From the IMG/VR virus record IMGVR_UViG_3300030330_006582, positions 1 through 24,084 of that record: 24,084 nt of DNA. One strand, 5' to 3'. The stretch comes from a virus. Taxonomy: Duplodnaviria; Caudoviricetes. The notes beneath the pieces were generated by a model, which did not search any database, was not told the DNA's origin, and worked only from the letters and a program-made list of their open reading frames with translations. Position numbers and translations under genes: made by a program. Shown piece after piece: positions 2,775 to 24,084 of the stretch; position 1 is the first letter of the stretch, and every line of letters starts with the position of its first letter.

Positions 2775-2783
2775 GACCTACCT

Positions 2784-4457: not shown

Positions 4458-5088
4458 TGTGATTTGCTGGCAAATACTTACCCCTCTCGTTTTCGTTATA
4501 ATGGTATTTGTTTCTAGGAACAATTTTCTTACAAGTATCTTTAAAATCCTGTTCGCTTAATACAATAGGAATACCTATTTGCTCGGAAAGGGATTTTAGG
4601 CAGGTCTCTGTGTCATAGGTAAGAAATTCGTAACTCAACCAATTAAAAAATACATTTTTTTCTTCATAGCATTCTTTTAAACATTTAATAACCCACTCTA
4701 AAGATAGCTTATGAATTTCTTGTGCGGCTTCTCTTTCCATTCCTTGTGACATCAAAGATTTCACAGTTGTTTCGTGGTCGCGAATTGGACACACTACATT
4801 TATTTGGCAATCACCATACATGTCTCTAACTTTAGCTAGCAGTCTGTTAAAGGAAATGACTCCAATATTTCTCTCAAGGGGCTTAAAATATACAGCGTCA
4901 ACAACTTCTCCTTCAGAGGAGCCTGTCGGAACAGAATTCGTGTAAACTATTTTGTCAGAATCTGGTTTTGGGGGAGCAAAACCACCACCTTGGTCACCAT
5001 CACACCCAAAGAATTTTAAAAATATTGAGGCTGTTAGTTTGTTTCCGCTTCCTTGTGGTCCAACCACTAATATTATGTTTTTTTTCAT
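4450..5088 (-). CDS. Sulfotransferase-like P-loop protein
   Basis: IILVVGPQGSGNKL (5'-PSB-like loop), CPIRDHETTVKS (3'-PB RDP...S-like), LSYEFLTYDTETCLKSLSEQIGI (the 'YEdL..dP...l..l...lg' segment). ATG at 5088 forms an ATGA overlap with the upstream stop. Confidence 0.55.
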   Translation of the reverse strand: MKKNIILVVGPQGSGNKLTASIFLKFFGCDGDQGGGFAPPKPDSDKIVYTNSVPTGSSEGEVVDAVYFKPLERNIGVISFNRLLAKVRDMYGDCQINVVCPIRDHETTVKSLMSQGMEREAAQEIHKLSLEWVIKCLKECYEEKNVFFNWLSYEFLTYDTETCLKSLSEQIGIPIVLSEQDFKDTCKKIVPRNKYHYNENERGKYLPANHNV

Positions 5089-6080: not shown

Positions 6081-6114
6081 GATTACCTTTTAATTTTCTA
6101 TTAGCTGGGACTTG

Positions 6115-6867
6115 TTACAGTTTATGTTTGTTATCCCAAAAATATTCTTCGTATGGATATTGTGGGATATCTTTAATATGTTGAGATAGTTTTTCGCCAT
6201 CAAAAAAGAAATAACCATCACCAATTCCATTAACATCATCTCTTTTATATTTATCTCTGATGAAATTGTGATTATGGAGGCTATATTTGCTAATTGTTTT
6301 TTGATTTTTAAGATGGTTGTTGTCTCCGTGTGAGTTAGATGTAAAATTATCGTATGGCGCAAAATAATTTTTAACTGGTTTTTTATATTTTAAAAATAGC
6401 CGATATGCCATATCTCCGTCTTCATTGCAAACACCCAAAAGCCTTTCATCAAACCATCCAGTATCATTTATCTGTCTTCTGTTTGCCATAAATGCAGACC
6501 AGCTTCTGCTTAAAGTAAATGTATCCTGTTCTTCAAGTTCATCAATGAACTCAAAAAATTGTTTATTAACCATAACATCGTCATTTAAAATGAGGACATG
6601 ATTTTCTGAAGAATTAATTATGCATGTATTCCATAGTTTTGCCAAAGATCGGAAGGTCGTCCAAATCATAGGGAATACATTTTTATAATCTGCACATAAC
6701 TTTAAGATGTCAGACCTATATTCGTTATTAAAATCTTCGTGAGCTTCCCCATTTACACAGCATATAATTTCTATTTCTGGTTTTATAGATTTTATTTTTT
6801 TAAGTAAAGGTATAAAATATTTTTTATATCTATATTTACAGGTAACTATTCCTATTGAATATTTCAT
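6115..6867 (-). CDS. GT-A (family 2-like) glycosyltransferase
   Basis: YSIGIVT start, LAKLWNTCI, LILNDDV (DxD-like), GWFDERLLG.NEDGD.AYR. Confidence 0.75.
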   Translation of the reverse strand: MKYSIGIVTCKYRYKKYFIPLLKKIKSIKPEIEIICCVNGEAHEDFNNEYRSDILKLCADYKNVFPMIWTTFRSLAKLWNTCIINSSENHVLILNDDVMVNKQFFEFIDELEEQDTFTLSRSWSAFMANRRQINDTGWFDERLLGVCNEDGDMAYRLFLKYKKPVKNYFAPYDNFTSNSHGDNNHLKNQKTISKYSLHNHNFIRDKYKRDDVNGIGDGYFFFDGEKLSQHIKDIPQYPYEEYFWDNKHKL

Positions 6868-6884
6868 ATAATATCGTTCTTTAT

Positions 6885-7571
6885 TTAATATTTTTCTCTA
6901 AGAGAAGATTTTAATTTTTTGTATGAATCGTTTTCTAGAGCTAAAACGCTCCCATGTTTTGTTATAGCTTTTCCCCAATAAACCTGAAAATCTAGCTCTT
7001 TAAACCTGTCATTTAATTCCCAATCCATAGGTTGTGTTATTTTGCTTTGTCCTAAATTAGAGTGCAGCTTTTTTAAGCTATCTTTTTTATAAAGAACCGT
7101 GCATAAGCCATTAGTTGCGGGGTGTTCTTTTTTGCCAAATATATCTCTATTGTCCCCCTTCCTAATCCAAGCCTCTCCTAAAAATACACAATCATAATTT
7201 ATATTTTTGCTATCGCATAAATTATCCATTGCTTTAATATAGCGAAGAGGATCTTCCTTAAAAATAACATCGTCCTCTAAAATAAAAAACTGCTCCCCAT
7301 CTTCTGAATCTGATATGTCACTAACTGCTTTTTTGTATTTCATACATAGAGACATTTCTGACCTTAACATTTCTCTATCAAAACGTCTTTGAAACTCATC
7401 TAAATCAAAATTTTCTAATATGACTTCGGAGGTTAAATCTTCTTGATCATACTCTTCAACAAACTCGAAATCTATATGAGGGAACCATTTTTCAAGCTCC
7501 GTCAGCATATGTTTCTTTCTTTCATTCAGCTTGCTGTAATGAATTATGAATATTTTAGATAAAGATGACAT
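6885..7571 (-). CDS. Glycosyltransferase family 25-like
   Basis: IFIIHYSKLNERKKHM, SEMSLCMKY, FILEDDVIF, PMDWELN. These match the GT25 (Lex2/LgtB-type) layout. Confidence 0.75.
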   Translation of the reverse strand: MSSLSKIFIIHYSKLNERKKHMLTELEKWFPHIDFEFVEEYDQEDLTSEVILENFDLDEFQRRFDREMLRSEMSLCMKYKKAVSDISDSEDGEQFFILEDDVIFKEDPLRYIKAMDNLCDSKNINYDCVFLGEAWIRKGDNRDIFGKKEHPATNGLCTVLYKKDSLKKLHSNLGQSKITQPMDWELNDRFKELDFQVYWGKAITKHGSVLALENDSYKKLKSSLREKY

Positions 7572-7587
7572 TGCTGATAATTAAAGC

Positions 7588-8514
7588 CTAACCAAATTTA
7601 ATACATTTTTTTAGGTAAGTATAAATATTATAATCAGTAAAATATTTTATTTTGGACTCTTTTACATAATCAATATATTTTTCATTGGAACCAGAAATTA
7701 TTTTTCGGATATCTTCAATGACACCCTCACTGTCAATATTAATTTTCTCAAAAGATTTAGGATTATAAAATTCATGAACTAAATTGCAGCCATCATAAAT
7801 AGGCACACAATTATTCATAAAACAGTCTGTTATTTTTTCGGATATGTAATAATCCTCTCTGGAGTTTTCAATACCTATACTAAACTCATAGTCACCTAAA
7901 GCGTCCTCTTTATATTCTGCATATCCTTTATATCGAGGGTCTTCAATGTTCCAACCTCTTCCATAAATATCAATATCCAGATCTGACTCTAGAATTCTAA
8001 TTAATAATTTTTCCCTATTAAAATAAATAGAGTCTGCATGTTTGGGAACTCCTGCAATTGCTCCATGTGCAGCTAAAATAATAGAACATTTTTTGCTTTT
8101 ATTGAAATTGTCATTTGATAAATATTCTTCCATGGAGGTTTTAATTCCTTCTCCAGCTTGCTTTACATGTGATTTAGTTGAGCCTCCAGAATCTTCACTA
8201 AACATTAGTGTAGGTGCCATCTCTGCATTTTCTCTAGAAGAAAATCTATCTACACTAGTAAAAATTTTAAAACTATTATCTAAAACCTCATCTTTTACAC
8301 AATGACTCCAACTCGGTTCCATTGTGAAGACGATGTTTTTTTCCTTGGGAACACTTAGCATTTCAGAGCTATTGTTGAAAGTTATTAAGTAATCAAAATC
8401 TGAAGCAGAAGTAATTTCAAGTCCTTGCGGTGGCTCTCCCCAGTTTCTTACAACTCTGTCAGCTAATCCCTCTGGAGTGTCCCAGTGACAAGCAAATTTT
8501 ATTTTTTTAGTCAT
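7588..8514 (-). CDS. Glycosyltransferase family 10-like (alpha-1,3/4-fucosyltransferase)
   Basis: C-terminal IDIYGRG...K...YEFSIGIENSREDYYISEKITDCF..CVPIYDG is the alpha-1,3-FucT motif. N-terminal MEP motif. Confidence 0.8.
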   Translation of the reverse strand: MTKKIKFACHWDTPEGLADRVVRNWGEPPQGLEITSASDFDYLITFNNSSEMLSVPKEKNIVFTMEPSWSHCVKDEVLDNSFKIFTSVDRFSSRENAEMAPTLMFSEDSGGSTKSHVKQAGEGIKTSMEEYLSNDNFNKSKKCSIILAAHGAIAGVPKHADSIYFNREKLLIRILESDLDIDIYGRGWNIEDPRYKGYAEYKEDALGDYEFSIGIENSREDYYISEKITDCFMNNCVPIYDGCNLVHEFYNPKSFEKINIDSEGVIEDIRKIISGSNEKYIDYVKESKIKYFTDYNIYTYLKKCIKFG

Positions 8515-9361
8515 TTTTTATGAATGTTGAAAATTTAAGCGAATATGGATCAAAGTCGCCCCACAGGTCATCATATAAATTTTTCGTTAATTTTAAATTT
8601 TTAAATTCGCTCCAATCATCAATGATGAGAATAGGAATGCTCATTTCCTTGAATCTTTCTGCTCCGTGCCAGCGGGTAACTATCGGGATACTCCTCATAT
8701 AAAGAGCTTCCCAAGTTTTGTGACAATCTACCCCATTTCCAACGGGAGAAACAGTAAACCAAGATGATGCTATATCTTCTAAATATTTTTCTTGAGTAGA
8801 CTCTACAAAATCATCGTGATTTTTTATAGAGGCGGCATTAGGATATTTTTTTTGCAATTGTAAAGGATATTTAGACCCTAGTTTATTAAGGCAATCATTT
8901 CTTGCTGCGGGATTAGTGGAAACATTAAAATTAATATAAACATTGTTTTCTTTGTTAATGTTTTTTGAGATTGTTTTATTAAATCTCTCTTGATTTCCAT
9001 GAGACCATTTAGGATTAGCTATGCCAATGGGGATAGGAAAAACCTTATCGTGATAGGCTATGAGATTTTGAGTATACCAATGCTGTATATTAGGAAATAA
9101 ATTAAATACAAATTTTATTTCATTTTCTCCGAAGTTTATGTCTGAGTTATGTGTTACTAAATTAAATTGATCTGGTAAATTAACTGCACCTATCTTGGAA
9201 TAAGTAGAAAGTGTTGATAGGTGTTCTGGTTTGCAAAAAACATAATTATTGTTTAGGTTTGTATCTTCAAACGCAGCAAACTCAGGTGTCCGTGCATCTT
9301 TATAATGGCTAAGTTGAAGTCTACATTTATGTTTAAAATATGTTCCGCAAATTAAATTCAT
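8507..9361 (-). CDS. Exostosin/GT47-like glycosyltransferase
   Basis: LVTHNSD, IPIGIAN, YINFNVSTN..R, SWFTVSPVGNGVDCHKTWEALYMRSIPIV (GT47-type 'F.l.P.G.g....R.wEal..g.IPV'). Confidence 0.7.
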   Translation of the reverse strand: MNLICGTYFKHKCRLQLSHYKDARTPEFAAFEDTNLNNNYVFCKPEHLSTLSTYSKIGAVNLPDQFNLVTHNSDINFGENEIKFVFNLFPNIQHWYTQNLIAYHDKVFPIPIGIANPKWSHGNQERFNKTISKNINKENNVYINFNVSTNPAARNDCLNKLGSKYPLQLQKKYPNAASIKNHDDFVESTQEKYLEDIASSWFTVSPVGNGVDCHKTWEALYMRSIPIVTRWHGAERFKEMSIPILIIDDWSEFKNLKLTKNLYDDLWGDFDPYSLKFSTFIKND

Positions 9362-10209
9362 AATAAAACTTTATCCCAAAATTCAGACGCTGCATTCTCG
9401 CAGCGATTTTTAAATTTATCATAACCCACTTCTTTAAAGTCTAAATAAGATCCAATGATAGAAGGGTTTCCTAATATATCTTCTACTCCACACAAAATAG
9501 CCTCCCCAATCATTCTACAAAAAGGTTCGTTTACATTTGGAGAGTGAAATACTGAATTGCATTTTTGAAAAATTTCAGCTACCTCAGAAGGATTGCACCA
9601 TTTTTTGTGGTAGGTTATGTTTTCATGCTTATCAAAATGATAAGGGGAGACGACATTAGAACCTCCAAAAATATCTATTTTCCTATTGGGATTATTTTTA
9701 GAAAAATTAATTAGGTTTTGAGTTCCTTTTTGCGGGTGAACATAACCACAATAAACAACATCATATTCTTTTTTTAAGTTAGCCTTTTTAAAAATTGAAG
9801 TGTCTAATGGATCGGGAACAATTTCTACATTCTTAAAATAGTCTCCATATAATTCTTTAAAAAAATTATAGTGGAAGTCTGTTAAGAAAAATGTTTTTTT
9901 ACAATTAGAAAATAACTGCTCCCTATCTTCACTGCTTAAGTAATGGCAAGAATCATGTTCTAGTCTGACTGAATTGGGGAGTTTTTTAATTAAATTAAAT
10001 CTTTCAGGAGAGGTTTTGGATATACACTCTAAGTTGGAATTAATCACCAAATCATAGGATACAAAAAGATCTGTTATTGGAGAGGAGTGATGGTGTTCCT
10101 TTATAGTGTGACCTCGTTTTTTGCCTTCCTCAATAATAATTGAGTTGCTAATTTGAGCCCCACCAACAGCTTGCTCTAAGGTAAAATCAGAAATGACTAA
10201 AACATCCAT
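9358..10209 (-). CDS. GT-B (family 4-like) glycosyltransferase
   Basis: GGAQIS N-terminal motif, YCGYVHPQKG, and EPFCRMIGEA (Ex7E). The probable start is ATG 10209 rather than GTG 10212. Confidence 0.8.
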   Translation of the reverse strand: MDVLVISDFTLEQAVGGAQISNSIIIEEGKKRGHTIKEHHHSSPITDLFVSYDLVINSNLECISKTSPERFNLIKKLPNSVRLEHDSCHYLSSEDREQLFSNCKKTFFLTDFHYNFFKELYGDYFKNVEIVPDPLDTSIFKKANLKKEYDVVYCGYVHPQKGTQNLINFSKNNPNRKIDIFGGSNVVSPYHFDKHENITYHKKWCNPSEVAEIFQKCNSVFHSPNVNEPFCRMIGEAILCGVEDILGNPSIIGSYLDFKEVGYDKFKNRCENAASEFWDKVLL

Positions 10210-10214
10210 CACAC

Positions 10215-10694: not shown

Positions 10695-12341
10695 TTAACC
10701 CTCGCAAGATGAGCAGTTCAATATTGATCTAGCTAACTCTTGACTCGGATTAGCACTCCTTTGATAGTAAAAACTTTTTACACCCTGCTCCCACCCAAAG
10801 ATGAGGAGTTCACTTACTTGTTTTGGTGGACATTTAGGGGATATCATTAAATTGAGGCTTTGACCTTGGTCGATGTATTTTTGTCTTTGTGCTGCTTGAA
10901 TGACTATTTCTTTTTGAGAAATTTCGCCAAACGTTTTAAATACTTCTTTTTCTTGATCAGTTAAAAAGTCTAAATGCTGGACGGAACCTCCTTTTTGTAG
11001 AATAGATTTCCAAGTTGTCTGTGTATTCTTTTTCTTCTCTTCTAGGAGTTTTTCTAGATATGGATTTTTATAGGTAAACTTACCCTTGGCTAAATCCTTG
11101 GTGAAATAGTTGCTGTTCAGTGGCTCAATAGATGGAGAGACTTGACCCAATATAAATGAGCTTGAGGTTGTTGGAGCAATAGCCATCGTGGTCATATTGC
11201 GCTTACCGTAACCTTTTAAATGTTCTGGCTCTCCCAAAAGAACAGCAAGTTCTTCTGTGGCTTTTTGGGATTTTTGTTTTATTGTTTTGTGAATTTCTGT
11301 ATTGAGGAATTTTGCCTCCATACTTTCAAATCCAATCATCTCTTCTTGTAAAAAAGAGTGCCACCCTAAAACACCCAAGCCTAAAGCTCTTTGTTTTTTG
11401 GCAAAATTATGAGAAGCCTCCATGAAAGGAATTCCCTCTGTCTTCTGGACATATTCCTCCATTACTGCATCGAGAAAATATGTTAATGTTTCGATTGCAT
11501 CTGTCTCCTTAATCTCGTTCCACTTAACTAAATTTAACGAGGACAAACAGCAAACAAAAGATTCCTCTTCAGAAGAGTGTAAGAATATTTCGCTACAAAG
11601 ATTAGATGCACTAATTTTTAACTTCTTATCTTTGTAGGCTTTTGGTGCTCGCTTGTTAGCTGTATCTGTAAAAAACAAATAAGGATATCCTGTCTCAAAT
11701 CTCTTTTTGATAATTGATGCCCATATAGTTCTTTTTTTTCTATCTCCCTCCATCAGTGAACGCATCCATTCATCGGTGATACAAACACCAAAAGACATTT
11801 CCTGAATAGGATTGCCTTCACTTCTTATTCTTAAGAACTCAGTAATGTCTGGATGTTCAACGGGAAGATATGCTGCAAATGATCCTCTTCTAACATTACT
11901 TTGAGAAACAACAGAAGAAACCTTATCATAAAGCTCCATAAAATGGACTGGTCCACTGGAAGTTCCTCCCGCTGAAATCTCCGCTCCTCTTTCTCTTAGA
12001 TCTCCAAAATAAGCAGATGTTCCAGCACCGTGTTTTGTCTGCATTCCTACTTCGGCTTGCTTGTCCAAAATAGCGTCCATTCTGTCTTCAATAAAGACAC
12101 CATTGCAGGAGATGGGTAAACCTCTCTCTCTGCCAAAGTTTGCCCAAATAGGGCTGGCTAGTGAATAAAATCCGCGAGAAAGATACTCTTCAAACTTCTC
12201 AGCGAACCCTTTTACTTTGAGATATTTTTCAGCCGCAACCGAAATGTCATGCCCTCTTTGTTCGGCAGATTCGCCTGTTTGTAAATACCCTCTTTTTAGA
12301 AAATCGCGAGAGTCCTTATTAAGCCATTTGTATTTCTTCAT
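10695..12341 (-). CDS. nrdA: Ribonucleotide reductase alpha subunit, short form without ATP-cone (NrdAi-type)
   Basis: PISCNG (C225 equivalent), SNLCSEI (N437/C439/E441), FVCCLSSLNL (C462), AIAPTTSSS, DQGQSLNL, SFYYQR (Y730/Y731), C-terminal CSSCEG. 548 aa. Confidence 0.95.
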   Translation of the reverse strand: MKKYKWLNKDSRDFLKRGYLQTGESAEQRGHDISVAAEKYLKVKGFAEKFEEYLSRGFYSLASPIWANFGRERGLPISCNGVFIEDRMDAILDKQAEVGMQTKHGAGTSAYFGDLRERGAEISAGGTSSGPVHFMELYDKVSSVVSQSNVRRGSFAAYLPVEHPDITEFLRIRSEGNPIQEMSFGVCITDEWMRSLMEGDRKKRTIWASIIKKRFETGYPYLFFTDTANKRAPKAYKDKKLKISASNLCSEIFLHSSEEESFVCCLSSLNLVKWNEIKETDAIETLTYFLDAVMEEYVQKTEGIPFMEASHNFAKKQRALGLGVLGWHSFLQEEMIGFESMEAKFLNTEIHKTIKQKSQKATEELAVLLGEPEHLKGYGKRNMTTMAIAPTTSSSFILGQVSPSIEPLNSNYFTKDLAKGKFTYKNPYLEKLLEEKKKNTQTTWKSILQKGGSVQHLDFLTDQEKEVFKTFGEISQKEIVIQAAQRQKYIDQGQSLNLMISPKCPPKQVSELLIFGWEQGVKSFYYQRSANPSQELARSILNCSSCEG

Positions 12342-13312
12342 TAAAAAAGATCGTCAGCGTCAAATGTTTGAGAGTTCTTAGAATATTCCACGGGTCTAGA
12401 ATGGAAGAAGTCGGTGGCATTATTGCCCAACAATTCTTCTTCGAACCACATTGTATCTTCCAATAAAGAAGTGTCAACATCAAACGCTGAATCAAAACCG
12501 ATTTTTTCTAAAGAGTCATTAATTCTATTTTTTATGAACTCTTTCAAGATGTCGGCATTGAGACCTTTTTCATTAAATCCATTTACCATCCAGTCTACGA
12601 GGTAACTTTCTGCTACAAAAGCAGCTTTAGCTTCGCTGGCAATCCTCTCCTCCAATTCATCATCAAAAAGCTCTGGATGCTCGCTTCGGATGGTGTTGAT
12701 AATTTTGATTCCCGCAAGAGCGTGAATGTTTTCTTCGTTTCTGGTGTATTTTACCTGCTGACCAGTATCCTTAAGAACGTTACGGTAACGATTAAACCAA
12801 TTAATCACATAGAACTGGCTAAACAAAGAAACATTTTCCACAAACAAAGTAAAAAGAGTAAGTGCATACACATATTGCTTCTTAGAATCTTTGTAAAACT
12901 TGTGGTTATACTTACGGAGATATTTAACTCTGCCCTCAATAAAGTCGAGCTTTAGATTTTCCTCAAAAACATCTTCTAATCCCAGGACTTTCAAGAGTCT
13001 CTCATAAGCATTATTGTGAATAACCTCAACGTTTGCCATCACATAGCCGAGGTCGGTTAAACTGGGATGAGGTAGGTTGTCTCCCAGCTTGCTCCAAAAC
13101 TTCTTAACGGCTACTTCAATCTGTCCAATCGCAGAAAGAGTTCTGATGATCATTTCCCTCTCATCTTCGCTTAAATTTACGTTAAAATCCTGAATATCAC
13201 TACTAAAACTGAACTCTTTGTCGGTCCAAAAACCGTTATGCATTGCCTCTATAAACTCCTGCGCCCATGGATAATGGTCGGGCTTCCTTGATACTTGTTC
13301 TTCGAAAATCAT
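12341..13312 (-). CDS. nrdB: Ribonucleotide reductase beta subunit, class Id-like
   Basis: Ligands E66 (QIEVAVK), E96/H99 (EVIH), E159, E194/H197, plus Y103 and K70. C-terminal DFF..RPVEYSK. Confidence 0.93.
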   Translation of the reverse strand: MIFEEQVSRKPDHYPWAQEFIEAMHNGFWTDKEFSFSSDIQDFNVNLSEDEREMIIRTLSAIGQIEVAVKKFWSKLGDNLPHPSLTDLGYVMANVEVIHNNAYERLLKVLGLEDVFEENLKLDFIEGRVKYLRKYNHKFYKDSKKQYVYALTLFTLFVENVSLFSQFYVINWFNRYRNVLKDTGQQVKYTRNEENIHALAGIKIINTIRSEHPELFDDELEERIASEAKAAFVAESYLVDWMVNGFNEKGLNADILKEFIKNRINDSLEKIGFDSAFDVDTSLLEDTMWFEEELLGNNATDFFHSRPVEYSKNSQTFDADDLF

Positions 13313-13321
13313 GACTAAACA

Positions 13322-13351
13322 ATTTTACACTTAGCAGTATGCCTCTGTCAA
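13322..13351 (-). promoter_or_regulatory. Promoter of nrdB-nrdA
   Basis: Minus strand TTGACA (13351-13346), 18 nt spacer, TAAAAT (13327-13322). It overlaps an AAGTGTAA motif, and the ATG is 9 nt downstream. Confidence 0.55.
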
Positions 13352-13380
13352 GTCAATATCAAAATTTCCGAAAATTTAAT

Positions 13381-13408
13381 TTGACAAACGAAAAGTCGCC
13401 CGTATAAT
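13381..13408 (+). promoter_or_regulatory. Perfect-consensus sigma70 promoter
   Basis: TTGACA (13381-13386), 16 nt spacer, TATAAT (13403-13408), back-to-back with the nrdB promoter. Confidence 0.75.
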
Positions 13409-13464
13409 ATACCGTGAAACGGAGACAACGATTCTTCCTTTCCTAACGTAAAAGGTAAAGTATT

Positions 13465-13487
13465 ACGTTTTACTTACAGTAAAACGT
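13465..13487. repeat. Perfect 10-bp inverted repeat (hairpin)
   Basis: ACGTTTTACT-tac-AGTAAAACGT, extendable across one T/T mismatch to 13461-13491. Confidence 0.85.
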
Positions 13488-13567
13488 TATATAAATATAA
13501 TATAAAATCAAGAATTGAACTTTCAGTTTTTGTGGAAAAAGGTAAACCAGAGCATAGAATTGGGTCG

Positions 13568-14140
13568 ATGAGTAGTGACTTGACTTTAATTTCTAGGATT
13601 CAAGACGACAATGACCAAGACAGCTTGTTGGAGATCATTGATCGTCACTCTGGTATTTTTCACTCAATGGTGAACCATTTTATGTCTCACCCTCAAAACG
13701 CTCTCGATAAGAGTCAGATAGTAGGAGAAAAAGATTCCACTATTTATTCTGCGGCTCTAAATTATGATCCCGACAGAAATACAAAATTTTCTACCCACTT
13801 AGCAAACCAAACAAAGTGGAAATGTCTTAATGCCCTCAATAAAAGGAAAAAGAATAAAGAAATTTTTATTGATGACGAATATACCTATGTTGAACCCAGT
13901 TGTGACTCTTTCATTAGAGATATCAACAAGGGAGAGGCTATGTGTGTGTTTGAAAAATGTCTAGAGGAAGAAAAAGACGAAAGGGTAAAAAAAATAGTTG
14001 ACATGCGATATGGAGCAGGTAATAATAAGCTCACACCTTGGAGACATATTGCAGAAGAGTTAAATATGAGCATTCAGGGATGCATTAATGTTCACAACAA
14101 GTTTATTAACAAAGTAAAAAAAGAAGGAAATTATGTTTAA
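13568..14140 (+). CDS. Phage sigma-70-family RNA polymerase sigma factor
   Basis: Region 2-like AALNYDPDRNTKFSTHLANQTKW and region 4 HTH IVDMRYG...LTPWRHIAEELNMSIQGCINVH. The likely start is ATG 13568 (MSSDLTLISRIQ), 7 nt after TAGAAT. The ORF track's GTG 13532 lies in the promoter. Confidence 0.8.
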   Translation: MSSDLTLISRIQDDNDQDSLLEIIDRHSGIFHSMVNHFMSHPQNALDKSQIVGEKDSTIYSAALNYDPDRNTKFSTHLANQTKWKCLNALNKRKKNKEIFIDDEYTYVEPSCDSFIRDINKGEAMCVFEKCLEEEKDERVKKIVDMRYGAGNNKLTPWRHIAEELNMSIQGCINVHNKFINKVKKEGNYV

Positions 14141-14495
14141 TTCAATCACCGCAGCCGCATATCTTGTAAAAGATCCCGAGGTCCGTCAAACCAGCACTGG
14201 TAAAAAGGTCGCAAACCTTAGGGCTGGCATTTCCACATCAAACGCTAAAACAAAATGTTTTATTGATATCGAATACTGGGACAAGACCGCTGAAATTGCA
14301 GAAAAGTATCTCAGCAAGGGAAGAGAATTTATTGTTCAAGGAGAACTCTGCATGTCTTCTTGGGAAAAGGATGGCAAGAACTTTAGTAAATATCACATCA
14401 GAGGAAAAGACTTGCAGTTTTTGAGTTCGGCTAAAAAGTCCGACTCCGATGGAGGTAATGACTCATCCCAAGACTCTGACGATGTTCCCTTTTAA
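14133..14495 (+). CDS. ssb: Single-stranded DNA-binding protein
   Basis: OB-fold pattern (LVKDPEVRQT..GKKVA, FIDIEYWDKTAE..KYLSKG..V.GEL...W) and acidic tail ending DDVPF. Confidence 0.92.
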   Translation: MFNSITAAAYLVKDPEVRQTSTGKKVANLRAGISTSNAKTKCFIDIEYWDKTAEIAEKYLSKGREFIVQGELCMSSWEKDGKNFSKYHIRGKDLQFLSSAKKSDSDGGNDSSQDSDDVPF

Positions 14496-15574
14496 TGAAA
14501 TTAATATTAGAAGCACCATTTAATAGCTTAAGCTTTGGCAATGTTGCTCTAAACATTGTTAGAGAATTACACAGAAAAGAAGTTGAGTTGGCTATTTTCC
14601 CAGCAGGGGATTTAGATTTTAAGGCTTATGAAATATCTGATGATTTAAAAAAATATATCGAAGACTCCATAAATAATAGGTGGAAAAATATTTCAGCAGG
14701 AACTCCTTCTCTTAAGTTGTGGCACTTAAATGGAAGTGAGAATAGGAAGACTAAAGACCAATATCTTTTTACTTTCTATGAATGCAACCAACCTACAGAA
14801 GTAGAAACTAAAATTTGTGGTTTACAAGACAAAACGTTCTTTAGCTCAAGAGAGGCAAAGAAACATTTTACAGATCAAGGGCTTACTAATTGTCAGTTTA
14901 TCCCTTTGGGCTTTGACGAAGATTTTAAAGTAACAGGGAAAGAATACTTAAAAGATACCATTCATTTTGGTTTAATGGGTAAGTTTGAAAAAAGAAAGCA
15001 TACTCAAAAAATAATCAAAACTTGGCTCAAGAAATACGGTAACAATCCAAAATATCAACTTTCTTGTTGTATCTCTAACCCATTCTTTAAACCTGAACAA
15101 ATGCAAGGTCTATGGAATGACACGCTTGAAGGAGTTAATTATAATAATTTAAATATTATTCCTCATCTGCAAAAAAACAGTGAGGTTAATGAGTTATTAA
15201 ACGCAATTGATATTGATCTAACTGGTTTATCGGGTGGTGAGGGTTGGAACTTGCCAGCATTCAATGCGACATGTTTAGGTAAGTGGAGTGTGGTTTTGAA
15301 TGCAACATCGCACAAAGACTGGGCTACAGAAGAGAACTCTATTTTAATTGAACCTTCTGGAGAAATGCCAGCCGAAGATGGGGTGTTCTTCAAAAAAGAT
15401 TCTCCCTTTAATCAGGGAACATTTTATACTTGGTCGGAAGATCAGGCTTTAGAAGCCATGGAGAAAGCTGAATCTAAGGTGGGTCAAATTAACACTGAGG
15501 GTGTCAAGATGGGGGACAGTATGACATATTCTAAAACTGTTGATTCTATTTTAGACTGTATATACAGTAGTTGA
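14495..15574 (+). CDS. GT-B glycosyltransferase-like protein
   Basis: IPLGFD, FGLMGKFEKRK, LSGGEGWNLPAFNATCLGK..V.N.TSHKDW (GT4-like EGWxLP motif, with the second Glu replaced by Asn). TAATG coupling to ssb. Confidence 0.75.
   Translation: MKLILEAPFNSLSFGNVALNIVRELHRKEVELAIFPAGDLDFKAYEISDDLKKYIEDSINNRWKNISAGTPSLKLWHLNGSENRKTKDQYLFTFYECNQPTEVETKICGLQDKTFFSSREAKKHFTDQGLTNCQFIPLGFDEDFKVTGKEYLKDTIHFGLMGKFEKRKHTQKIIKTWLKKYGNNPKYQLSCCISNPFFKPEQMQGLWNDTLEGVNYNNLNIIPHLQKNSEVNELLNAIDIDLTGLSGGEGWNLPAFNATCLGKWSVVLNATSHKDWATEENSILIEPSGEMPAEDGVFFKKDSPFNQGTFYTWSEDQALEAMEKAESKVGQINTEGVKMGDSMTYSKTVDSILDCIYSS
15555..15568. repeat. 14-bp perfect palindrome just upstream of the hsp20 -35 box
   Basis: ACTGTATATACAGT. 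Confidence 0.8.
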
Positions 15575-15599
15575 AGAATGGCATCTTAAGTGCTATAAT
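15571..15599 (+). promoter_or_regulatory. hsp20 promoter: sigma70-type with extended -10, overlapping a sigma54-like GG-N10-GC
   Basis: TTGAAG, 17 nt spacer, TATAAT preceded by TG (TGcTATAAT). Nested within it is TGGCATCTTAAGTGCT (15579-15594). Confidence 0.65.
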
Positions 15600-15607
15600 A
15601 TAAGTAT

Positions 15608-15943
15608 ATGAATACTTTAATTAATTCCCTTTTTAATGGCTTAAACGATCTCTCTCCAAGAGATCTAATGATTAGAAAAAAATCTTGTGTTGCTGATACA
15701 GGAGATGTTTACGTGGCAGAAGTAGAGTTGGCTGGCTTCTCTAAAAAAGATATCAACATTAGTATTGTTGATGGAGTTGTAGAGCTTGAGGCAAAAAACA
15801 AAGACCGTTCTCAGAAATTTAAATTACATTTAAATGATTTAGTCTCAGAAGATCATGTATCTGCTGAGATGAAAAATGGACTGTTGAAGCTAACTCTTCC
15901 AAAGAAAACTGTATCAGAGGCAAAACAAATCGAGATTAAGTAA
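15608..15943 (+). CDS. Small heat-shock protein (Hsp20/alpha-crystallin)
   Basis: YVAEVELAGFSKKDINISI, VSAEMKNGLLKLTLPK, C-terminal IEI (IxI) motif. Confidence 0.92.
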   Translation: MNTLINSLFNGLNDLSPRDLMIRKKSCVADTGDVYVAEVELAGFSKKDINISIVDGVVELEAKNKDRSQKFKLHLNDLVSEDHVSAEMKNGLLKLTLPKKTVSEAKQIEIK

Positions 15944-17418: not shown

Positions 17419-18375
17419 TTATGTTCCTGTTGGTATTACACCGAGAGGATCTTCTACGAGATCAACGGTTAATTTATTAGAATTTGAATAATTCCAAGTA
17501 TGACTCCATGTAGGGGAATAATATACTTTAGGTCTATTATATACAGAAGGAATCTGGTGTTCAAACCTCCTATAACCTCCTTTGTTTTCCAAGAAATGAA
17601 TCATACACTTTGTCTGCTTGTCAGAAATATTTTCAAAAGAATAATTCATTCCAAAAGTAGAAATGTTGTCATTCGTTTTTAATCTTTGAGTAAAAGAGTT
17701 CTGATATTGTAAAATGTCAGCTTTAATTTGAACATCGTTTTGAGTTCCAATATCAGGCTCAAAAAAGAATTTTTGAGTCCACATTGATGAGGCTCCTGTA
17801 GGGCTGTTAGTCTCACTAGAAGAGTGATCTCCAGTGCAATAATAAAAGTTATCTAACTTGGTTTGATTTAATCCCGAATAAACAATGTCATATTTTTCAT
17901 AACTAGTAGAAGGCTTCCATCCCTGAAAAGATAAATTAGGAAAAGTTCCCATCCCCGACCAATTAAACAAGGTAGGTGCATGATCTACATTGATTTTAGC
18001 AGCGACCTCGAAATGTTGGTTGTTCATGAAATTAATTGCATAATTATCACAAAAACCTGAAAATGTTTTATAGATTCCTAAGTTATCGGGAGATATTTCT
18101 ATAGGCAAATTGCCCGACTGTGCCTCGAAAAAAGCGGCTAGTCTACGAGCATTAGTCTCGTTAACGTCATACCTTAAAGAAAACGTTGCCGACAAACTGT
18201 TAGCCGATAAAGGAATTAAATTATAATAAAAATCATCAGTGGTATAACTGTGATTAGTCGCCTGAAAGTCTACTTGAGATCCATAGACTGGAGTAAGAGA
18301 TAATCCAGATAACTTGGAGGGAATAGTAACCCCCGAAATATTATCATCTCTGTTGTAAAATAAACTTTCGCTCAT
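17419..18375 (-). CDS. Minor tail/distal tail protein with two gpM-like halves and a central CBM-like insert
   Basis: Repeated pattern ARRLAAFFEAQSG.LP / TKCMIHFLENKGG.RRF. Central WKPSTSYEKYDIVYSG...FYYCTGDHSS..SP....W. Confidence 0.6.
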   Translation of the reverse strand: MSESLFYNRDDNISGVTIPSKLSGLSLTPVYGSQVDFQATNHSYTTDDFYYNLIPLSANSLSATFSLRYDVNETNARRLAAFFEAQSGNLPIEISPDNLGIYKTFSGFCDNYAINFMNNQHFEVAAKINVDHAPTLFNWSGMGTFPNLSFQGWKPSTSYEKYDIVYSGLNQTKLDNFYYCTGDHSSSETNSPTGASSMWTQKFFFEPDIGTQNDVQIKADILQYQNSFTQRLKTNDNISTFGMNYSFENISDKQTKCMIHFLENKGGYRRFEHQIPSVYNRPKVYYSPTWSHTWNYSNSNKLTVDLVEDPLGVIPTGT

Positions 18376-19193
18376 GAGTGACCAACATAGTTAAGTGTTA
18401 AACGAACTGCTCCATCAGCACTTGAATTTAGCTGCTCTGAAACCAATGATGCTTTAGGAATAGTCAAGGTTTGCAAGGAAGTTCCATCCCTACCATTAAT
18501 AGTAAAAGAAACCGTCTTATTTTCTTTTCCATATCCTAAAAAACTTAAACCGCTTTCTAAAAATATATCATCCACTTCTAGCTGAACTGATGCTGTATAT
18601 TGAATTGGGCTAATATGTTTTACTTCGGTTGGTGTTTCTAACCCAACCGTATAATAAGGTTTTTTGTTTACTGCTAAAGAATAATCAAAACCTATAACCC
18701 TGTTAGTGGTGCTATTATCGCAAGTTGCAGTTATTGATCCCTGACTCGGTATATAAATAGTGGTAGGCGATGCACCAGATGCATTAATTCCACTCCTCAT
18801 CTCATCATAAACAACAAAGCTTGCATTTACTTTAGGCACTGCTCCAACCGCACAATTAACAGAATACGACGATAAATATCCCTCCTCAAATCCATATGAA
18901 GCATTGTTATCATAGTTAAAGCTTCCTGCCAATTTCGATGAGGCTCCTGTAAAATTCAAAACAGGATCGTTATAAATAAGATATCTTGAAAAAGAAACTG
19001 TTTGCTGGGTTGGACCACCAATTGTAGTAAGACCTTGGCTTGAACCTAGCGGAGAAAGAGTATTGGCGCTATTTGAATAACCAATATCAAGAGATTCAAT
19101 ACCTGAAAGTTCTCTAGGAGCTAGGGTTGCCCCAATGCCTACTAACCCAGATATAAAAAAATGGTTTTGGTAATTTAATGTGGTGTCATACAT
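18372..19193 (-). CDS. Virion structural protein (tail hub/tube-like)
   Basis: Immediately downstream of the tape measure gene (TAATG coupling). Two-half beta-rich pattern (LSGIESLDIGYS..LG / VIGFDYSLAVNK.P.Y.VG) similar to 16323..17417. Confidence 0.55.
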   Translation of the reverse strand: MYDTTLNYQNHFFISGLVGIGATLAPRELSGIESLDIGYSNSANTLSPLGSSQGLTTIGGPTQQTVSFSRYLIYNDPVLNFTGASSKLAGSFNYDNNASYGFEEGYLSSYSVNCAVGAVPKVNASFVVYDEMRSGINASGASPTTIYIPSQGSITATCDNSTTNRVIGFDYSLAVNKKPYYTVGLETPTEVKHISPIQYTASVQLEVDDIFLESGLSFLGYGKENKTVSFTINGRDGTSLQTLTIPKASLVSEQLNSSADGAVRLTLNYVGHS

Positions 19194-22100
19194 TATGCTT
19201 TAGCTTGTCTTAAGGAACCTCCCAGTCTTTTCTCATCTTCAATGACTTGCTTGACAGTATCTTTGATTCTCATTGCCAGAGTTCTCTTCTGCTCCTCACC
19301 CTGACCTCCATCTTCTGTTTCACTACCGTCAGAATTAACAGTAATGTTAATAACAGTTTCTCCGCTACCTCCTGAAACTTCGATAAGCTCATCAAGCTTT
19401 CCAACAACTTCGCCGTTACCTCCTCTTGCTCCAGAGTTTAATGCAGCTAAATTACCTCTTCCAATATTTTGTGTAGCAGCAGCATTCATAACAAACTCTC
19501 CTCCCGACAGCATAGCAGGAACCGTATCAACTCCAGCGGTATAAGGGACAGATCCTCCAGCAGCAAAACGTCTACGACCACCCATGACCGCTGAGTTGGT
19601 CCAGTCTCTTGGTGGCAATACTCCTGGGTTTCCATATACATCTGTAAAGCCTGAACCTGAACCCGAGCCTGACCCCGAGCCTCCACCTCTAAATAAATTT
19701 CCTACTCCACTAAACACTCTTGATAAGAAGCTTGGTTGTGCTCCACCTCCACTAACTGGAGGAGTGGAAGCTCCCGCACCAGTTCCCATTCCTCCTGTAA
19801 TTCCCATTAAAGCACCACTGACTATTGCTGACATTATGGCTCCTTTTAAAGCTCCCTTTTGTTGCTTCCTTTGTTCTTCAAGTTGCTTTTCTTTGTCAAG
19901 CTGTTGGAAGTAAAGTCCTAAAGCTTGTTCTTGAGAGGCTTTTTCTCTTTGGGCTTGTGGGCTATTTGCAATACCAAACCTAGTCATTCTTGCGCTTAAA
20001 GGTTCCAAAGCTATTGATGCGAATCCTGAACCTCCAGATATTCTATCATAACCACCCATGGTAAATCCTTGAGTGGCAAAATTAAACAAGTCAGACTTTC
20101 CAGTTATAGATCCTTGCCCATAACTTCCTGGGGTAAACATGCCACCTCGATTCATTGTTGGGACTGATCCTGAGTTCAAAGCCATCATGAATGCAGGACC
20201 ATATTTTTTAACTGCTCCTTTGTTCATGACAAACTCTCCCCCAGTCAAAAGAGCGGGGACATCATCACGATTACCAGAACCGCCAGTTACTCTTCCACCA
20301 GAGTTAAATCCAAATATTGATTTTAATACTCCTCCAATAATACCAGTTCCTCCTCCAGAGCCGCCTTGGTTTGGATTACCAAAGCCGCCCATTATGTTGT
20401 TAATTGCTTGATTCATAAATGCCTTAGATAAACCTAAGAAGAAATCTGAAGCGGCTCTTCTAAGAGTATCCCCTAAATTCTCTCCTTTAGCTATGGCATC
20501 TACCATTGCGTCCCCAATGTTTCTTGCAAACTCTACAGATGAATCAACAATTGTTCCTGCAAGTTGTTCAGCCTCATCAAGCTCGCGTAATCCTCTCACA
20601 TCTCCCGCTTGCATTAAACCAAATCTTTTCTGGAAGTTACTATCTCTAATACTTCCTTTTATTCTTGTTGCTGGATCAGTAGATAATTGTGCATTTAATA
20701 GATCACTCACTCTAGCATCTCGTAAAGCTTTGGCTTGGTTTTGTAATAAGAAACCAGTGTCAGGAAGACCTTTAATTGCTGCTGTGTTTTCTCTTCTTGC
20801 ATTAGCCTCGTCTATTGTAGCCTGTATGTTTTCTTCCCTCTTTAATCTTTCTGATGCCATGCTCTCTTGAAGCTCTCTTATAACATCTCCCATTCCCCCA
20901 ATATTGCCCATTTCTCCTCGTAATTGTTCTTTCAGAAATTGATCCAGTCCTGCCGCATCGGTAACACTTGTCATCATACCTCTTACATTTGCTTTTCCAG
21001 TCCTTGCTACCCCTTCTCCTGGTGCTAATTTATCAAGAGCACTTGCAAGCTTTGCTTGCGTATCTGCCAACTCTTTTTCAAAACCTTCTCTTCTAGTAAT
21101 TCTAGCGTTTACATTAGCTAATGCTATCTGGTCGTTAGCCTGTGCTAATTCTATACTTTCGCGAGCAAAATCAGTTTGAAGACCTAAACCTCTGTTTCTC
21201 ATCCTTGCTTGGATTTCTTCCCTTTTCCTTATATCTGGATCTAGCGCACCTCTTGATTCTCTACCTCTTGTAATAGCTTCTCCAGCATCCGCTATAGCCT
21301 CCACTCTCGTTGCCTCCAATTTTGCTAAAGCAATCTCTCTTTCAGTCTTTAATTTATCTTTAGCTATACCTAAATTTTCTCTACTTAAGATGATTTCATC
21401 TTTTAAATTGTTAAGTTGATCAACTTTTTGTGAAGTGTTTTCTTCTAAAACTTTATTAGTCGCTTCTAAAATGCTGTTTTCTTCTTTTTGGGTAATTATG
21501 CCATCTTTGGAGGCTTCTGTCATTAATTCTTCTAAAGCTTTAACATCGTCTGTCTTTGTTGTAAGCTCTGAAGTAAGCTTAACCATAGATCTTACGGCAT
21601 CTACAGTTTTATTTCTTGAGTCTCTCTCTGCCTCTAAAATTTTAATACCATTCTTTCTGTTAATAACCTCTTCTGCACTTAGTCCTGTTCTAAGGATATC
21701 CATCTCAAGTTGTTCCTTGGCATCATCAAGAGCCTTGTCATTCATCTTGGCTCTTTCAGCAGCCATTCTAATTATTCTATTAGTTTGGTTAGCTGTAATT
21801 CTGGCTTTTGCTTCTTCTGCCTTTTTATCTGCCTCGTTCGCTTTTTTCTTAGCATCCTCTTCCTTCTTAATCAGAGCCATCCTTAAATCATGAAGATCTT
21901 TATCTTGAACGGCTTTATGTCTTCCGTCATCCTTAAAAAGCCGATCTCTTAACCCAGCCTCTTTCTGTCTGAGTTCTTCAGCGTTAAGACCCATGTCTTC
22001 TGCAACCTTTTTTCGGGCTTTTCCACCCTTCAAGAAACCCGAAAGCTGCTCTTCATTAAATTGAGTTAAAAATTCTTTATCTTCTTCAGTTATTCCTAAA

Positions 22101-24084
22101 CCTTCTGCATCCTGTATAGCTTTAGTAAACTTATTAGCCTTAACTATAAGTTCATCAAAAAATGTTAAAGTGTCAGCGACTTCATCTTTTGAAATAAATC
22201 CGTCCTTTCTTATCTTATCTATAGCTTCCAGCATTTGGTTCTGATCTCCCCCCGCAGCAACCACGGTTTCCATTCCAGCCTCTAACGATTCCCTTAATGC
22301 ACCTTTTTTAAACAGGTCTGCTCCTTCAAAATTTGCTTCTCTAGCTCCAAATGCTGCACCTTTTGATGAAAGCATAAATGATTTAAAGAAACCTATGTCT
22401 TTAAGTTCATCTTCTCTCATTGCAAAAGCAGACTCTTTTCCGAAGAAGTCACCCTCAGTCATGCGCTTCATGTCATCTTGAACTCTTTTTTGTCCAGTAG
22501 GACTTAGCATATCGAGTCTAATGGCAGCTTTTTGAGCAGACTCGGAAACTTGAGCCATAGCAGTAGCCGCAGCATTTGTAACACCTGTTACTTGATCAAA
22601 AACATCAGCACCTATTTTGTATGCAGCCGTAAGTATACCAACCTTAACAGATAATCCTTTTAGGAAGCCTCCAAGCTTGCCAACCTTTCCACCCGCTCCC
22701 TCTAAGGCACCACCTAATCCTTCCAGAGCAAAGGATGCCGTCGATCCCGCAGCAATCCCCTCTGAAACAATATTAGTATATCTTGCAAAACCATCGGTAG
22801 CATCAGCAGTGGCACCACCAAGCATTGTCATTCCAGCTTGCAATGCAAATATTCCACCAAGCAAATCTCTATTTCCTTCTTTTACCTCATTGTCGGAACG
22901 CAGTCTTTCTGATGCCGCATCATTTACCTTTTTTCTTGTTTGACCATTTGTTTTGATTTGGGCAGTAAGTTTTTTAAGTTCTGTATTTGCCTCTGCATTG
23001 GTCATCTTGCCCTGCTTTATTTCCTTATTGAGAGCACGAATAACATTATTTAAACTTTTTAAAGATGCCTCTACGGGCTTGGAGTCCTTGATTCCAATAC
23101 TGGCCATAGTTAGCCCTTTTGCGAAGTTAGGGATAGCCCCAGTGGGCTCATCCCTTGTATTAGTCACCGCAAGACCCATTGGGTTCCCAGCATTCCTTAA
23201 AGAAGGATCTTGATTAATTCTTATCTGATTTATGGGTAGACCCGCCGCAGACTCTCTAGCCACAGCATCTTCCAATCCTCCAGCAAAATTAGGAATATAT
23301 CCAGAAGCACTTTGGAATCTTCTGCCTACGAGTTGATCCCTTCTCCTTAGTATAAGTGGTTCAGCCCTACTACTAAACTCTCTCTTAAGATTACCCTTCT
23401 TATCAAACCACGAAGGATTTTTGGATCTAACTTCAGATGTAGCCATCATTTGAGCATTCATCTGTTTTTCGCTAGGATCAAACCTACCTGCACCTTTTTC
23501 TTTTATAACTTTCTGATAAAAACTTTTTAAATTATCTTGAGATGTGCTAACTTTAAAGTCTCCTGTATTTTGACCACTCGGTATACCAAAAAACTCTTTT
23601 ATTGTTTCTAAATTTGAGCCCATTCTTACATCAAAATCCCCGCCCCTTTCTCTTTGTGCGGCTCTATAATCAAGAGACGAGGCTATAGCCACTTCGAAAG
23701 CGGCACCTATCACTCCCATTAATGCCCCTTTTGCTCCGCGAGTAGTATCAAATCCTTTTTGTATTTCACTTTCTTGCGCTATTCTACCTAAAGGCTCTAA
23801 TTTCTTAGTATATAGAGAGGCAGCTTTAAAGATTTCAGATGAAATCATATCTTCAATACTAGCCTCTTTAGCATCGCTCCCTTTTTTGACTGCACTTTCG
23901 ACAGGTCCACGAACAATTCCTCCCCTCACCTTTACTCCGTCTACTGTTTTGGGTGCTCCTTTTATTTGTTGTATTGGCTTCTCCACGCCAATATCTGGAA
24001 CTAAGTAAAAGAAATTAGAAGCGTCTACGCTGGTGATTTTCTTTTTTCCCCCCTTTGCTTTTGCAAAGTTCGGGACATATCCCC
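19193..24084 (-). CDS. Tape-measure-like protein, 5'-truncated (>1629 aa)
   Basis: The frame stays open from 23986 to the window edge (...GYVPNFAKAKGGKKKITSVDASNFFYLVPDIGVEKP...). It has long coiled-coil and Ala/Gly hydrophobic stretches, two FxxGG...DxVPAxLxGGEFVMN modules, and a C-terminal VINITVN...VIEDEKRLGGSL end typical of TMPs. Confidence 0.85.
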   Translation of the reverse strand, partial: GYVPNFAKAKGGKKKITSVDASNFFYLVPDIGVEKPIQQIKGAPKTVDGVKVRGGIVRGPVESAVKKGSDAKEASIEDMISSEIFKAASLYTKKLEPLGRIAQESEIQKGFDTTRGAKGALMGVIGAAFEVAIASSLDYRAAQRERGGDFDVRMGSNLETIKEFFGIPSGQNTGDFKVSTSQDNLKSFYQKVIKEKGAGRFDPSEKQMNAQMMATSEVRSKNPSWFDKKGNLKREFSSRAEPLILRRRDQLVGRRFQSASGYIPNFAGGLEDAVARESAAGLPINQIRINQDPSLRNAGNPMGLAVTNTRDEPTGAIPNFAKGLTMASIGIKDSKPVEASLKSLNNVIRALNKEIKQGKMTNAEANTELKKLTAQIKTNGQTRKKVNDAASERLRSDNEVKEGNRDLLGGIFALQAGMTMLGGATADATDGFARYTNIVSEGIAAGSTASFALEGLGGALEGAGGKVGKLGGFLKGLSVKVGILTAAYKIGADVFDQVTGVTNAAATAMAQVSESAQKAAIRLDMLSPTGQKRVQDDMKRMTEGDFFGKESAFAMREDELKDIGFFKSFMLSSKGAAFGAREANFEGADLFKKGALRESLEAGMETVVAAGGDQNQMLEAIDKIRKDGFISKDEVADTLTFFDELIVKANKFTKAIQDAEGLGITEEDKEFLTQFNEEQLSGFLKGGKARKKVAEDMGLNAEELRQKEAGLRDRLFKDDGRHKAVQDKDLHDLRMALIKKEEDAKKKANEADKKAEEAKARITANQTNRIIRMAAERAKMNDKALDDAKEQLEMDILRTGLSAEEVINRKNGIKILEAERDSRNKTVDAVRSMVKLTSELTTKTDDVKALEELMTEASKDGIITQKEENSILEATNKVLEENTSQKVDQLNNLKDEIILSRENLGIAKDKLKTEREIALAKLEATRVEAIADAGEAITRGRESRGALDPDIRKREEIQARMRNRGLGLQTDFARESIELAQANDQIALANVNARITRREGFEKELADTQAKLASALDKLAPGEGVARTGKANVRGMMTSVTDAAGLDQFLKEQLRGEMGNIGGMGDVIRELQESMASERLKREENIQATIDEANARRENTAAIKGLPDTGFLLQNQAKALRDARVSDLLNAQLSTDPATRIKGSIRDSNFQKRFGLMQAGDVRGLRELDEAEQLAGTIVDSSVEFARNIGDAMVDAIAKGENLGDTLRRAASDFFLGLSKAFMNQAINNIMGGFGNPNQGGSGGGTGIIGGVLKSIFGFNSGGRVTGGSGNRDDVPALLTGGEFVMNKGAVKKYGPAFMMALNSGSVPTMNRGGMFTPGSYGQGSITGKSDLFNFATQGFTMGGYDRISGGSGFASIALEPLSARMTRFGIANSPQAQREKASQEQALGLYFQQLDKEKQLEEQRKQQKGALKGAIMSAIVSGALMGITGGMGTGAGASTPPVSGGGAQPSFLSRVFSGVGNLFRGGGSGSGSGSGSGFTDVYGNPGVLPPRDWTNSAVMGGRRRFAAGGSVPYTAGVDTVPAMLSGGEFVMNAAATQNIGRGNLAALNSGARGGNGEVVGKLDELIEVSGGSGETVINITVNSDGSETEDGGQGEEQKRTLAMRIKDTVKQVIEDEKRLGGSLRQAKA
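19649..19687 (-). repeat. Gly-Ser hexanucleotide tandem repeat within the TMP
   Basis: Plus strand (cctgaa/cccgag/cctgac)n, encoding GGGSGSGSGSGSG. Confidence 0.8.

Follow-up and report, generated by a model that had tools for sequence, protein, structure and literature searches.

A phage tape measure protein with a recombination-exchanged slot for a predicted PD-(D/E)xK nuclease

The enzymes so far described as parts of tape measure proteins (TMPs) are few, fixed cases. In siphophage T5, the TMP pb2 bears an enzyme domain, is cut after R1127 during morphogenesis and is expelled at infection; in the accessible text its terminal part, pb2C, is given as a muralytic metallopeptidase with a proposed periplasmic role and one fixed cut (Linares et al., 2023; PMC10038345). 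In T5-like phages, a TMP trimer fills the lumen of the tube, its N-terminus touching the DNA, and is ejected on infection (PMC10713586). Gp96 of Thermus phage P23-45 likewise fuses a TMP to a nucleic-acid enzyme, and because this enzyme acts in the host cytoplasm, TMP-borne cytoplasmic delivery exists (Chaban et al., 2024; PMC10770324, as far as its available sections go). Here we describe the TMP gene at the end of a 24,084-nucleotide (nt) stretch of tailed-phage DNA (IMG/VR record IMGVR_UViG_3300030330_006582, positions 1 to 24,084), which is one complete virus contig and occurs in marine metagenomes. We call this whole stretch the window; the TMP that it encodes carries a predicted nuclease in an internal slot bounded by motifs of the PNF type, referred to as fences.

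Related principles are known from other protein classes. In the available text, polyvalent proteins join unrelated enzymes (metallopeptidase, ADP-ribosyltransferase, kinase, GNAT, nucleotidyltransferase) whose proposed delivery occurs during invasion (Iyer et al., 2017; PMC5512222), and polymorphic toxins with Tox-REase domains combine a conserved carrier with a recombining restriction endonuclease (REase)-type domain, as does the TMP of the window (Zhang et al., 2012; PMC3482391). TMPs of the TP901-1 type have in common, in the sections seen of PMC5099701, an N-terminal PF10145 domain, a place between tail chaperone-like and distal tail genes, and a helical body. The word 'tape' is absent from the main text of PMC5512222, whose supplements may list TMP fusions, and was not found in the searched portion of PMC3482391. 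Our literature searches, with subscription journals and supplements outside their scope, retrieved no motif-fenced or nuclease-bearing TMP, and the string 'GFIPNF' retrieved zero papers.

Our data make it fairly probable that a TMP slot, exchanged at its fences, holds a PD-(D/E)xK nuclease which leaves the tail together with the TMP and, as infection begins, attacks nucleic acid of the host. The slot is fixed between two modules, A and B, its breakpoints lie at PNF motifs, four residues of catalytic type are invariant, the cassette in the slot is under purifying selection, and no immunity gene is adjacent. The modular slot is real and well supported, and the cassette is probably a new PD-(D/E)xK nuclease family under allele exchange. 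The features of the TMP, with lengths in amino acids (aa), are as follows.

19193..24082, minus strand: TMP open reading frame (ORF), truncated at its 5' end; 1,629 aa, corresponding to about residues 636-2260 of the full-length copy L002/L081.
24062..24082, minus strand: upstream fence GYVPNFA, the last motif of module A; the remaining module A lies beyond the contig end.
23303..24061, minus strand: variable cassette of 253 aa, with an N-terminal beta-rich part, a nuclease-like core and a C-terminal basic helical hairpin.
23486..23773, minus strand: PD-(D/E)xK-like core, in the order helix(GxxFE), D, inserted helix, (D/E)xK, helix(S..K), drawn from alignment A2, the model and rows of the structure comparison VIA.
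23693..23695, minus strand: E130, a Glu predicted to act as metal ligand; all 192 of 192 segments have E or D here.
23630..23632, minus strand: D151, predicted 'PD' Asp, inside GGDFDV (23627-23644); 192 of 192.
23552..23560, minus strand: D175-F-K177, predicted (D/E)xK; D/E and K each in 192 of 192.
23282..23302, minus strand: downstream fence GYIPNFA, start of module B; a contig in run X3 departs from the window sequence at 23302.
23120..23302, minus strand: module B, GYIPNFA...GAIPNFA, about 61 aa, homologous to module A.

The window ORF is open at its 5' end, at the contig end, and matches the PHROG 3547 TMP (E 2.8e-13). The near-identical full-length copy has 2,260 aa, and its segment is 98% identical to that of the window; its six PNF motifs lie at residues 549, 581, 603, 639, 899 and 953, with the cassette between 639 and 899, a PNF-to-PNF spacing of 260 aa. 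The order of parts is an N-terminal domain (residues 1 to about 540), module A with four PNF motifs (about 545-645), the cassette, module B (two motifs), a long helical body and C-terminal GG modules. An initial annotation of the window had placed GYVPNFA at 24082-24062, GYIPNFA at 23302-23282, the Glu and GGDFDV as above, D at 23558-23560 and K at 23552-23554, all of which translate as it claimed; GAIPNFA, another motif of this kind and the third in the window, had escaped it and lies at 23140-23120, where it follows GYIPNFA by 54 aa. The fence consensus from 257 occurrences is approximately A-(A/S)-x-G-(F/Y)-(I/V)-P-N-F-A, and modules A and B align with a hhalign probability of 97.7%, to which the shared end motifs contribute part. 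Cassettes have a median net charge of +7.6 per 100 aa, compared with 0 to 2 elsewhere. Since one contig of run X3, a run that belongs to the study of a possible source sample but is not itself flagged as one, spans window positions 22400-24084 with 19 substitutions and zero gaps, the cassette arrangement is not an assembly artefact.

The cassette is replaced within conserved surroundings. Median identities in 168 TMPs are 74% for the N-terminus, 78% for module A and 79% for module B, whereas that of the cassette is 14%; as had been anticipated, the inter-motif segment is not invariant among homologues. Indeed, cassettes less than 30% identical were found in 30 of 134 pairs whose N-termini are at least 97% identical. 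DNA alignment covered 12 of the 16 discordant locus pairs: in 10 of these 12, upstream homology reaches into the last motif and ends 12-19 nt past the point where its (I/V)PNF codons begin, in the other 2 it ends at the first bases of the motif, and downstream homology restarts 6-24 nt before the PNF codons of the GYIPNFA fence. L003 and L033 share 99.2% DNA identity over nt 1-1924, up to 15 nt beyond the last upstream motif, and are then unalignable; L023 and L030 show 90.8% and 90.0% identity on the two flanks of an unalignable cassette. The replacing alleles are 11-24% identical and sit in near-identical backbones. The initial annotation proposed the PNF motifs as processing or recombination boundaries; since conserved flanks alone yield such breakpoints, they demonstrate recombination boundaries and not protein cleavage.

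A tree of 122 dereplicated N-termini, bearing 20 allele groups, was used to follow this exchange. The seven largest groups (99 rows) require 36 changes, where 6 is the minimum and shuffling gives a mean of 60.4; alleles are thus clustered in part yet far from vertical. The allele group of the window requires 9 changes, at least 7 of them forced by well-supported branches. In several pairs the synonymous divergence (dS) is far lower in the cassette than in the N-terminus (e.g., 0.05 vs 0.70), which fits recent lateral spread. A swap of different domain types between close relatives was rejected for the window's clade, where the one slot always holds the same nuclease-like family; there, the swapped unit is the allele, not the domain type. 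The idea of swappable cassettes is qualified accordingly: segments vary in number and identity in the wider family, and in allele only in the clade of the window.

Homologs for the analysis of catalytic residues were gathered through the flanks only, to avoid circularity. The module B search contributed the best 80 of 173 loci (75 segments complete, 5 truncated) and the module A search the best 120 of 617 proteins, of which 117 were new and used, each with exactly one segment of 206-317 aa. All 75 segments of the first set and all 117 of the second conserve G126, E130 (E/D), D151, D175 (D/E) and K177 (P0001 numbering); the two sets overlap and together form 45 clusters at 50% identity. Among these clusters, the conservation of every further D, E or K in the query is at most 0.82, and most segments share only 13-24% identity with that of the window. 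The E/D/(D/E)xK order noticed in the single sequence thus holds in all 192 flank-selected segments. The pattern G..[FY][ED]...D...[DE]xK is present in 190 of the 192 and in 0.85% of shuffled copies, and is therefore beyond chance. Moreover, the ratio of nonsynonymous to synonymous rates (dN/dS; 12 pairs) has a median of 0.24 in cassettes and 0.08 in N-termini, indicating purifying selection, and the GxxxE/D/ExK signature agrees with Tox-REase-7 as tabulated in the available part of PMC3482391.

AlphaFold2 predicted the whole cassette as a confident alpha/beta globule (predicted local distance difference test, pLDDT, 87.4), as its description as a globular segment had implied; the core model has a pLDDT of 81.4. 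Of the 50 rows that VIA gave for the core, 14 were folds that we take to be PD-(D/E)xK, at low Z, and so were 10 of the 10 rows with at least 79 aligned residues; when VIA was run on the full-cassette model, its rows were taken up by the C-terminal helices (residues 193-248). Several observations weigh against a nuclease. The REase-type pattern also occurs in 38 of 336 related non-cassette TMP stretches and is by itself not fully specific, the core model shows a reduced beta sheet with two short strands at the D and DxK positions, and Foldseek gave no match at E 0.001 against PDB and BFVD. Pfam, PHROG and PADLOC scans of the cassette and its homologs gave nothing relevant. For the canonical alpha-beta-beta-beta core, which the REase layout had led one to expect, support is weak: VIA gave low-Z PD-(D/E)xK rows only, the core model two short strands, and Foldseek nothing significant. 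The reduced sheet and the lack of a significant fold or profile match would suit a binding or structural module in which the conserved acidic residues and the lysine have another role. We consider such a module very unlikely, given that in the 45 clusters nothing is invariant but G, E/D, D, D/E and K, ordered and spaced as in REases, that the long VIA alignments are all of the presumed PD-(D/E)xK fold, and that sister cassettes carry the textbook G..E / D / EVK pattern. Plant hemopexin-type lectin repeats, the sole PDB sequence or profile matches, were rejected as summed repeat matches; the ESM Atlas lead TspB (scores of at most 0.85) was rejected too.

The nuclease family extends far beyond the clade of the window. 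The core profile matches 671 protein clusters (50% identity representatives); among the top 150, fence motifs flank the domain on both sides in 114, on one side in 21 (many of them fragments) and on neither side in 15. The 15 without fences include a group of TMPs of 1,400-1,650 aa with an IPRF variant and alleles close to that of the window. In shorter TMPs (P0163, P0184, P0187, P0209, P0215-P0217, P0244, P0258, L258-L277) the nuclease family follows an IPRF(A/N)xG motif; these lack module B and have several Y/F-A-x-G repeats downstream. We also picked 80 loci by conserved TMP peptides instead of the cassette and dropped those below 10 kilobases (kb), with a TMP below 1,000 aa or with fewer than 4 CCGG expected; 66 of the 67 evaluable TMPs contain the nuclease domain.

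GFIPNFA codons were also sought at the DNA level: 17 of the 64 parts of the viral collection yielded 168 stretches. Flanks were present for 80 of these, and nearly all long ORFs were TMPs of the window's type. The 38 evaluable TMPs of this motif-selected set (3 were dropped, module B being not recognised) have 1-6 slots, one being scored 0; the REase pattern is found in 34 of them, and in the first slot in 29. Their 116 segments form 60 BLAST clusters, a few of which are TMP body, not cargo. In distant cassettes, Pfam identified GNAT (E 7.9e-7 to 1.2e-4, three segments), PcfJ (2.9e-7), a GHKL ATPase (3.7e-5) and a cytidylyltransferase-like domain (1.3e-4), with weak matches to SprT-like, ParB and SNase domains; motif reading suggests that others may be kinase-like, HAD-like or ADP-ribosyltransferase-like. 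PDB profile searches gave no match for the kinase-like alignment A4 or for A6, E 0.32 only for the HAD-like A5, and nothing useful for the SNase-like segment.

Individual TMPs illustrate this range. A partial TMP of 2,563 aa in a Flavobacterium bin (L251:1-7689, plus strand) has at least 7 fenced cassettes, among which an HExxH peptidase, a kinase-like and two ADP-ribosyltransferase-like domains were read by eye. The very long TMPs L139 (more than 4,646 aa), L085, L089, L117 and L122 hold 2-6 unrelated cassettes, including a P-loop plus HIGH nucleotidyltransferase, a PcfJ-like domain and a GHKL ATPase plus HExxH. Cassette 2 of L111 has two nuclease-like domain copies in one slot with a degenerate GYIPSF motif between them, and P0034 has a second, unrelated slot. 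In L065:3-1565 the TMP frame ends about 380 aa past module B, whereas relatives read on further, which points to a frameshift or an error of assembly, and the L278 TMP (1,142 aa) likewise looks short.

The near-universal presence of the domain in this TMP family and its usual place in the first slot, together with a dN/dS below 1 and the lack of an immunity gene, might also be expected of a nuclease that serves the phage's own entry or genome handling, nicking or trimming the injected DNA or removing RNA, and that varies through relaxed constraint and recombination. This appears rather unlikely to us: repeated swaps to such divergent alleles in near-identical backbones, as well as the conflict-system enzyme types in neighbouring slots, are more in keeping with an arms race than with a housekeeping role. 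The likely cause of allele turnover is that the phage evades inhibitors or sensors of the host, or that the target changes.

A nuclease directed at the host raises the question of how the phage spares its own genome. The gene following the TMP gene is the following.

18372..19193, minus strand: tail protein gene directly after the TMP gene, in distal-tail position; PHROG 290 minor tail protein, E 0.002.

This gene adjoins the TMP gene in 64 of 75 loci (9 gave no match and 2 were too short), leaving no room for an immunity ORF between the two. Because the tail gene follows directly, and with the cassette being internal, there is no toxin-immunity layout after the TMP. Methyltransferases of the families PF00145 and PF01555 (C5, N4/N6) were found in 0 of 6 virus records, 54-100% complete, and of PF02086 (Dam-type) in 0 of 2 (G001, a 104-kb relative, and G002). 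The sugar-modification cluster of G001 has a weak PHROG 'DNA methyltransferase' match (E 2.5e-5, 48 aa).

An injected CCGG-specific DNase would need neither methyltransferase nor immunity protein if the phage were spared by having purged CCGG. Whole records were counted for the window (0 CCGG vs 19 expected) and G001 (0 vs 316 expected over both strands), all other counts being of loci. CCGG is missing in 49 of 64 near-clade loci of at least 10 kb and in 51 of 66 loci with a nuclease-bearing TMP, whereas the lone nuclease-free locus contains all 82 of the 82 expected. Among the distant loci, CCGG is missing in 17 of 28 with the nuclease family vs 1 of 12 without. Some contigs recur between these sets and the loci are not independent. 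PspGI, Bse634I, BsaWI and PfoI, presumably one family of CCGG type II REases, appear among the VIA rows, and the lack of C5, N4/N6 and Dam methyltransferases in G001 and G002 also agrees with such a DNase. Nevertheless, we judge it distinctly unlikely. CCGG-family REases have an R-(D/E)-R recognition motif and a displaced acidic residue, but the conserved columns here are the canonical (D/E)xK and S..K, with no conserved Arg motif. Avoidance tracks the phage lineage, not the allele: of the 15 near-clade loci with CCGG, 10 group together as a single clade in the N-terminal tree, which does not include the remaining 5, allele groups g1 and g5 occur in both CCGG-free and CCGG-holding genomes, and alleles about 45% identical to that of the window sit in loci with CCGG counts of 0/15, but also of 5/12, 7/13 and 8/15. 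Four carriers that contain CCGG, one of them 100% complete, have no detected C5 or N4/N6 methyltransferase. Moreover, GTAC, GGCC, CGCG and GATC are sporadically purged too, and host restriction is the usual cause of such site absences in many phages. It is likewise unlikely that a restriction-like endonuclease is injected within a TMP polyprotein with its target purged (CCGG, in most lineages), the PNF slot being a general tail-borne cartridge for effectors, which would be cleaved into separate enzymes and refilled through recombination. As for other sites, GTAC is absent from the window and from G001; L055, L063 and L064 lack CGCG instead; L132 lacks GATC and GTAC; and L278-L280 also lack GGCC.

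For the predicted host-directed nuclease we propose that the cassette would travel unfolded in the tail, a state that would also keep it latent in the producing cell, and that it would exit ahead of the DNA, refold and cut host nucleic acid. The analogy of T5 pb2 makes it conceivable, at somewhat less than even chances, that a cut at the PNF(A) fences releases the domain, but the model works without such a cut. The substrate is more probably DNA, with RNA as the less favoured candidate. In G001, L255:2838-5264 encodes an 809-aa phage ATPase with the PHROG label ATP-dependent protease, a possible unfoldase for virion proteins.

The gene order of the L002 tail genes, read by eye, and the lambda-like tail-tip genes of G001 indicate a siphophage. 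In its C-terminal portion the TMP includes one further module.

20135..20314, minus strand: C-terminal GG module, FNSGG...DDVPALLTGGEFV...MNRGG, with PHROG matches; a second copy begins at 19567.

No homology was detected between this module and modules A and B. Elsewhere in the window, 276-10212 and 14495-15574 contain a large sugar-modification cluster (three NAD-dependent epimerase/dehydratases, several glycosyltransferases and a methyltransferase-like ORF), which could modify the virion, the host surface or DNA, and 10695-15943, beside the tail genes, contains a class I ribonucleotide reductase pair, a sigma-70-like factor, a single-stranded DNA-binding protein (SSB) and Hsp20. Searches of cultured relatives in INPHARED gave no match for the PNF block or the tail-tube-like protein, and for the TMP N-terminus distant TMPs only, at about 27% identity. 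Two short contigs fall in Flavobacteriaceae bins, a host hint too weak to call.

In comparison with the known systems, the TMP of the window shares its general plan with TP901-1-type TMPs, PF10145 being found on its database homologs P0002 and P0037, with a non-contractile tail-module position; to this plan the family adds modules A and B and a variable enzyme-like slot of 200-320 aa in the middle of the protein. Its cassette differs from the metallopeptidase of T5 pb2 in being internal, fenced on both sides, nuclease-like and polymorphic. P23-45 gp96, in contrast, has a single conserved N-terminal RNA polymerase, and the available text on it reports no fenced slots or allele exchange. Unlike type II restriction-modification, the window's system has no cognate methyltransferase in the records searched.

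Polyvalent proteins are described, in the accessible text, as likely capsid-packaged and with no fence motif to be seen. Several unrelated domains, of types known from polyvalent proteins, are joined in distant members of the TMP family, whereas the clade of the window has one cargo slot (117 of 117) and no sign of the zincin-like metallopeptidase, HExxH being found in 0 of 81 near-clade TMP ORFs, many of them partial, and by eye in some distant cassettes. With polymorphic toxins the TMP shares a conserved carrier and a variable effector exchanged by recombination; compared with the Tox-REase toxins in the part of that work consulted, its domain is internal instead of C-terminal, has no adjacent immunity gene and no conserved Q, and is carried by a phage tail. 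The TMP of the window works like a polyvalent or polymorphic effector, yet is a member of neither class as defined. In a large family of uncultured aquatic siphophages, one nuclease-like domain is retained in an internal, fenced slot while its alleles are replaced at a high rate; as many as six slots are filled in some relatives. Two questions thereby become testable: in what way the long tails of siphophages carry cargo made of folded domains, and how the phage genome escapes a nuclease that is injected with it. If our interpretation is true, phages routinely use the tail tube to deliver ready-made effectors to the cytoplasm, and the slot offers a catalogue of nucleases not yet described and of candidate enzymes against host defences.
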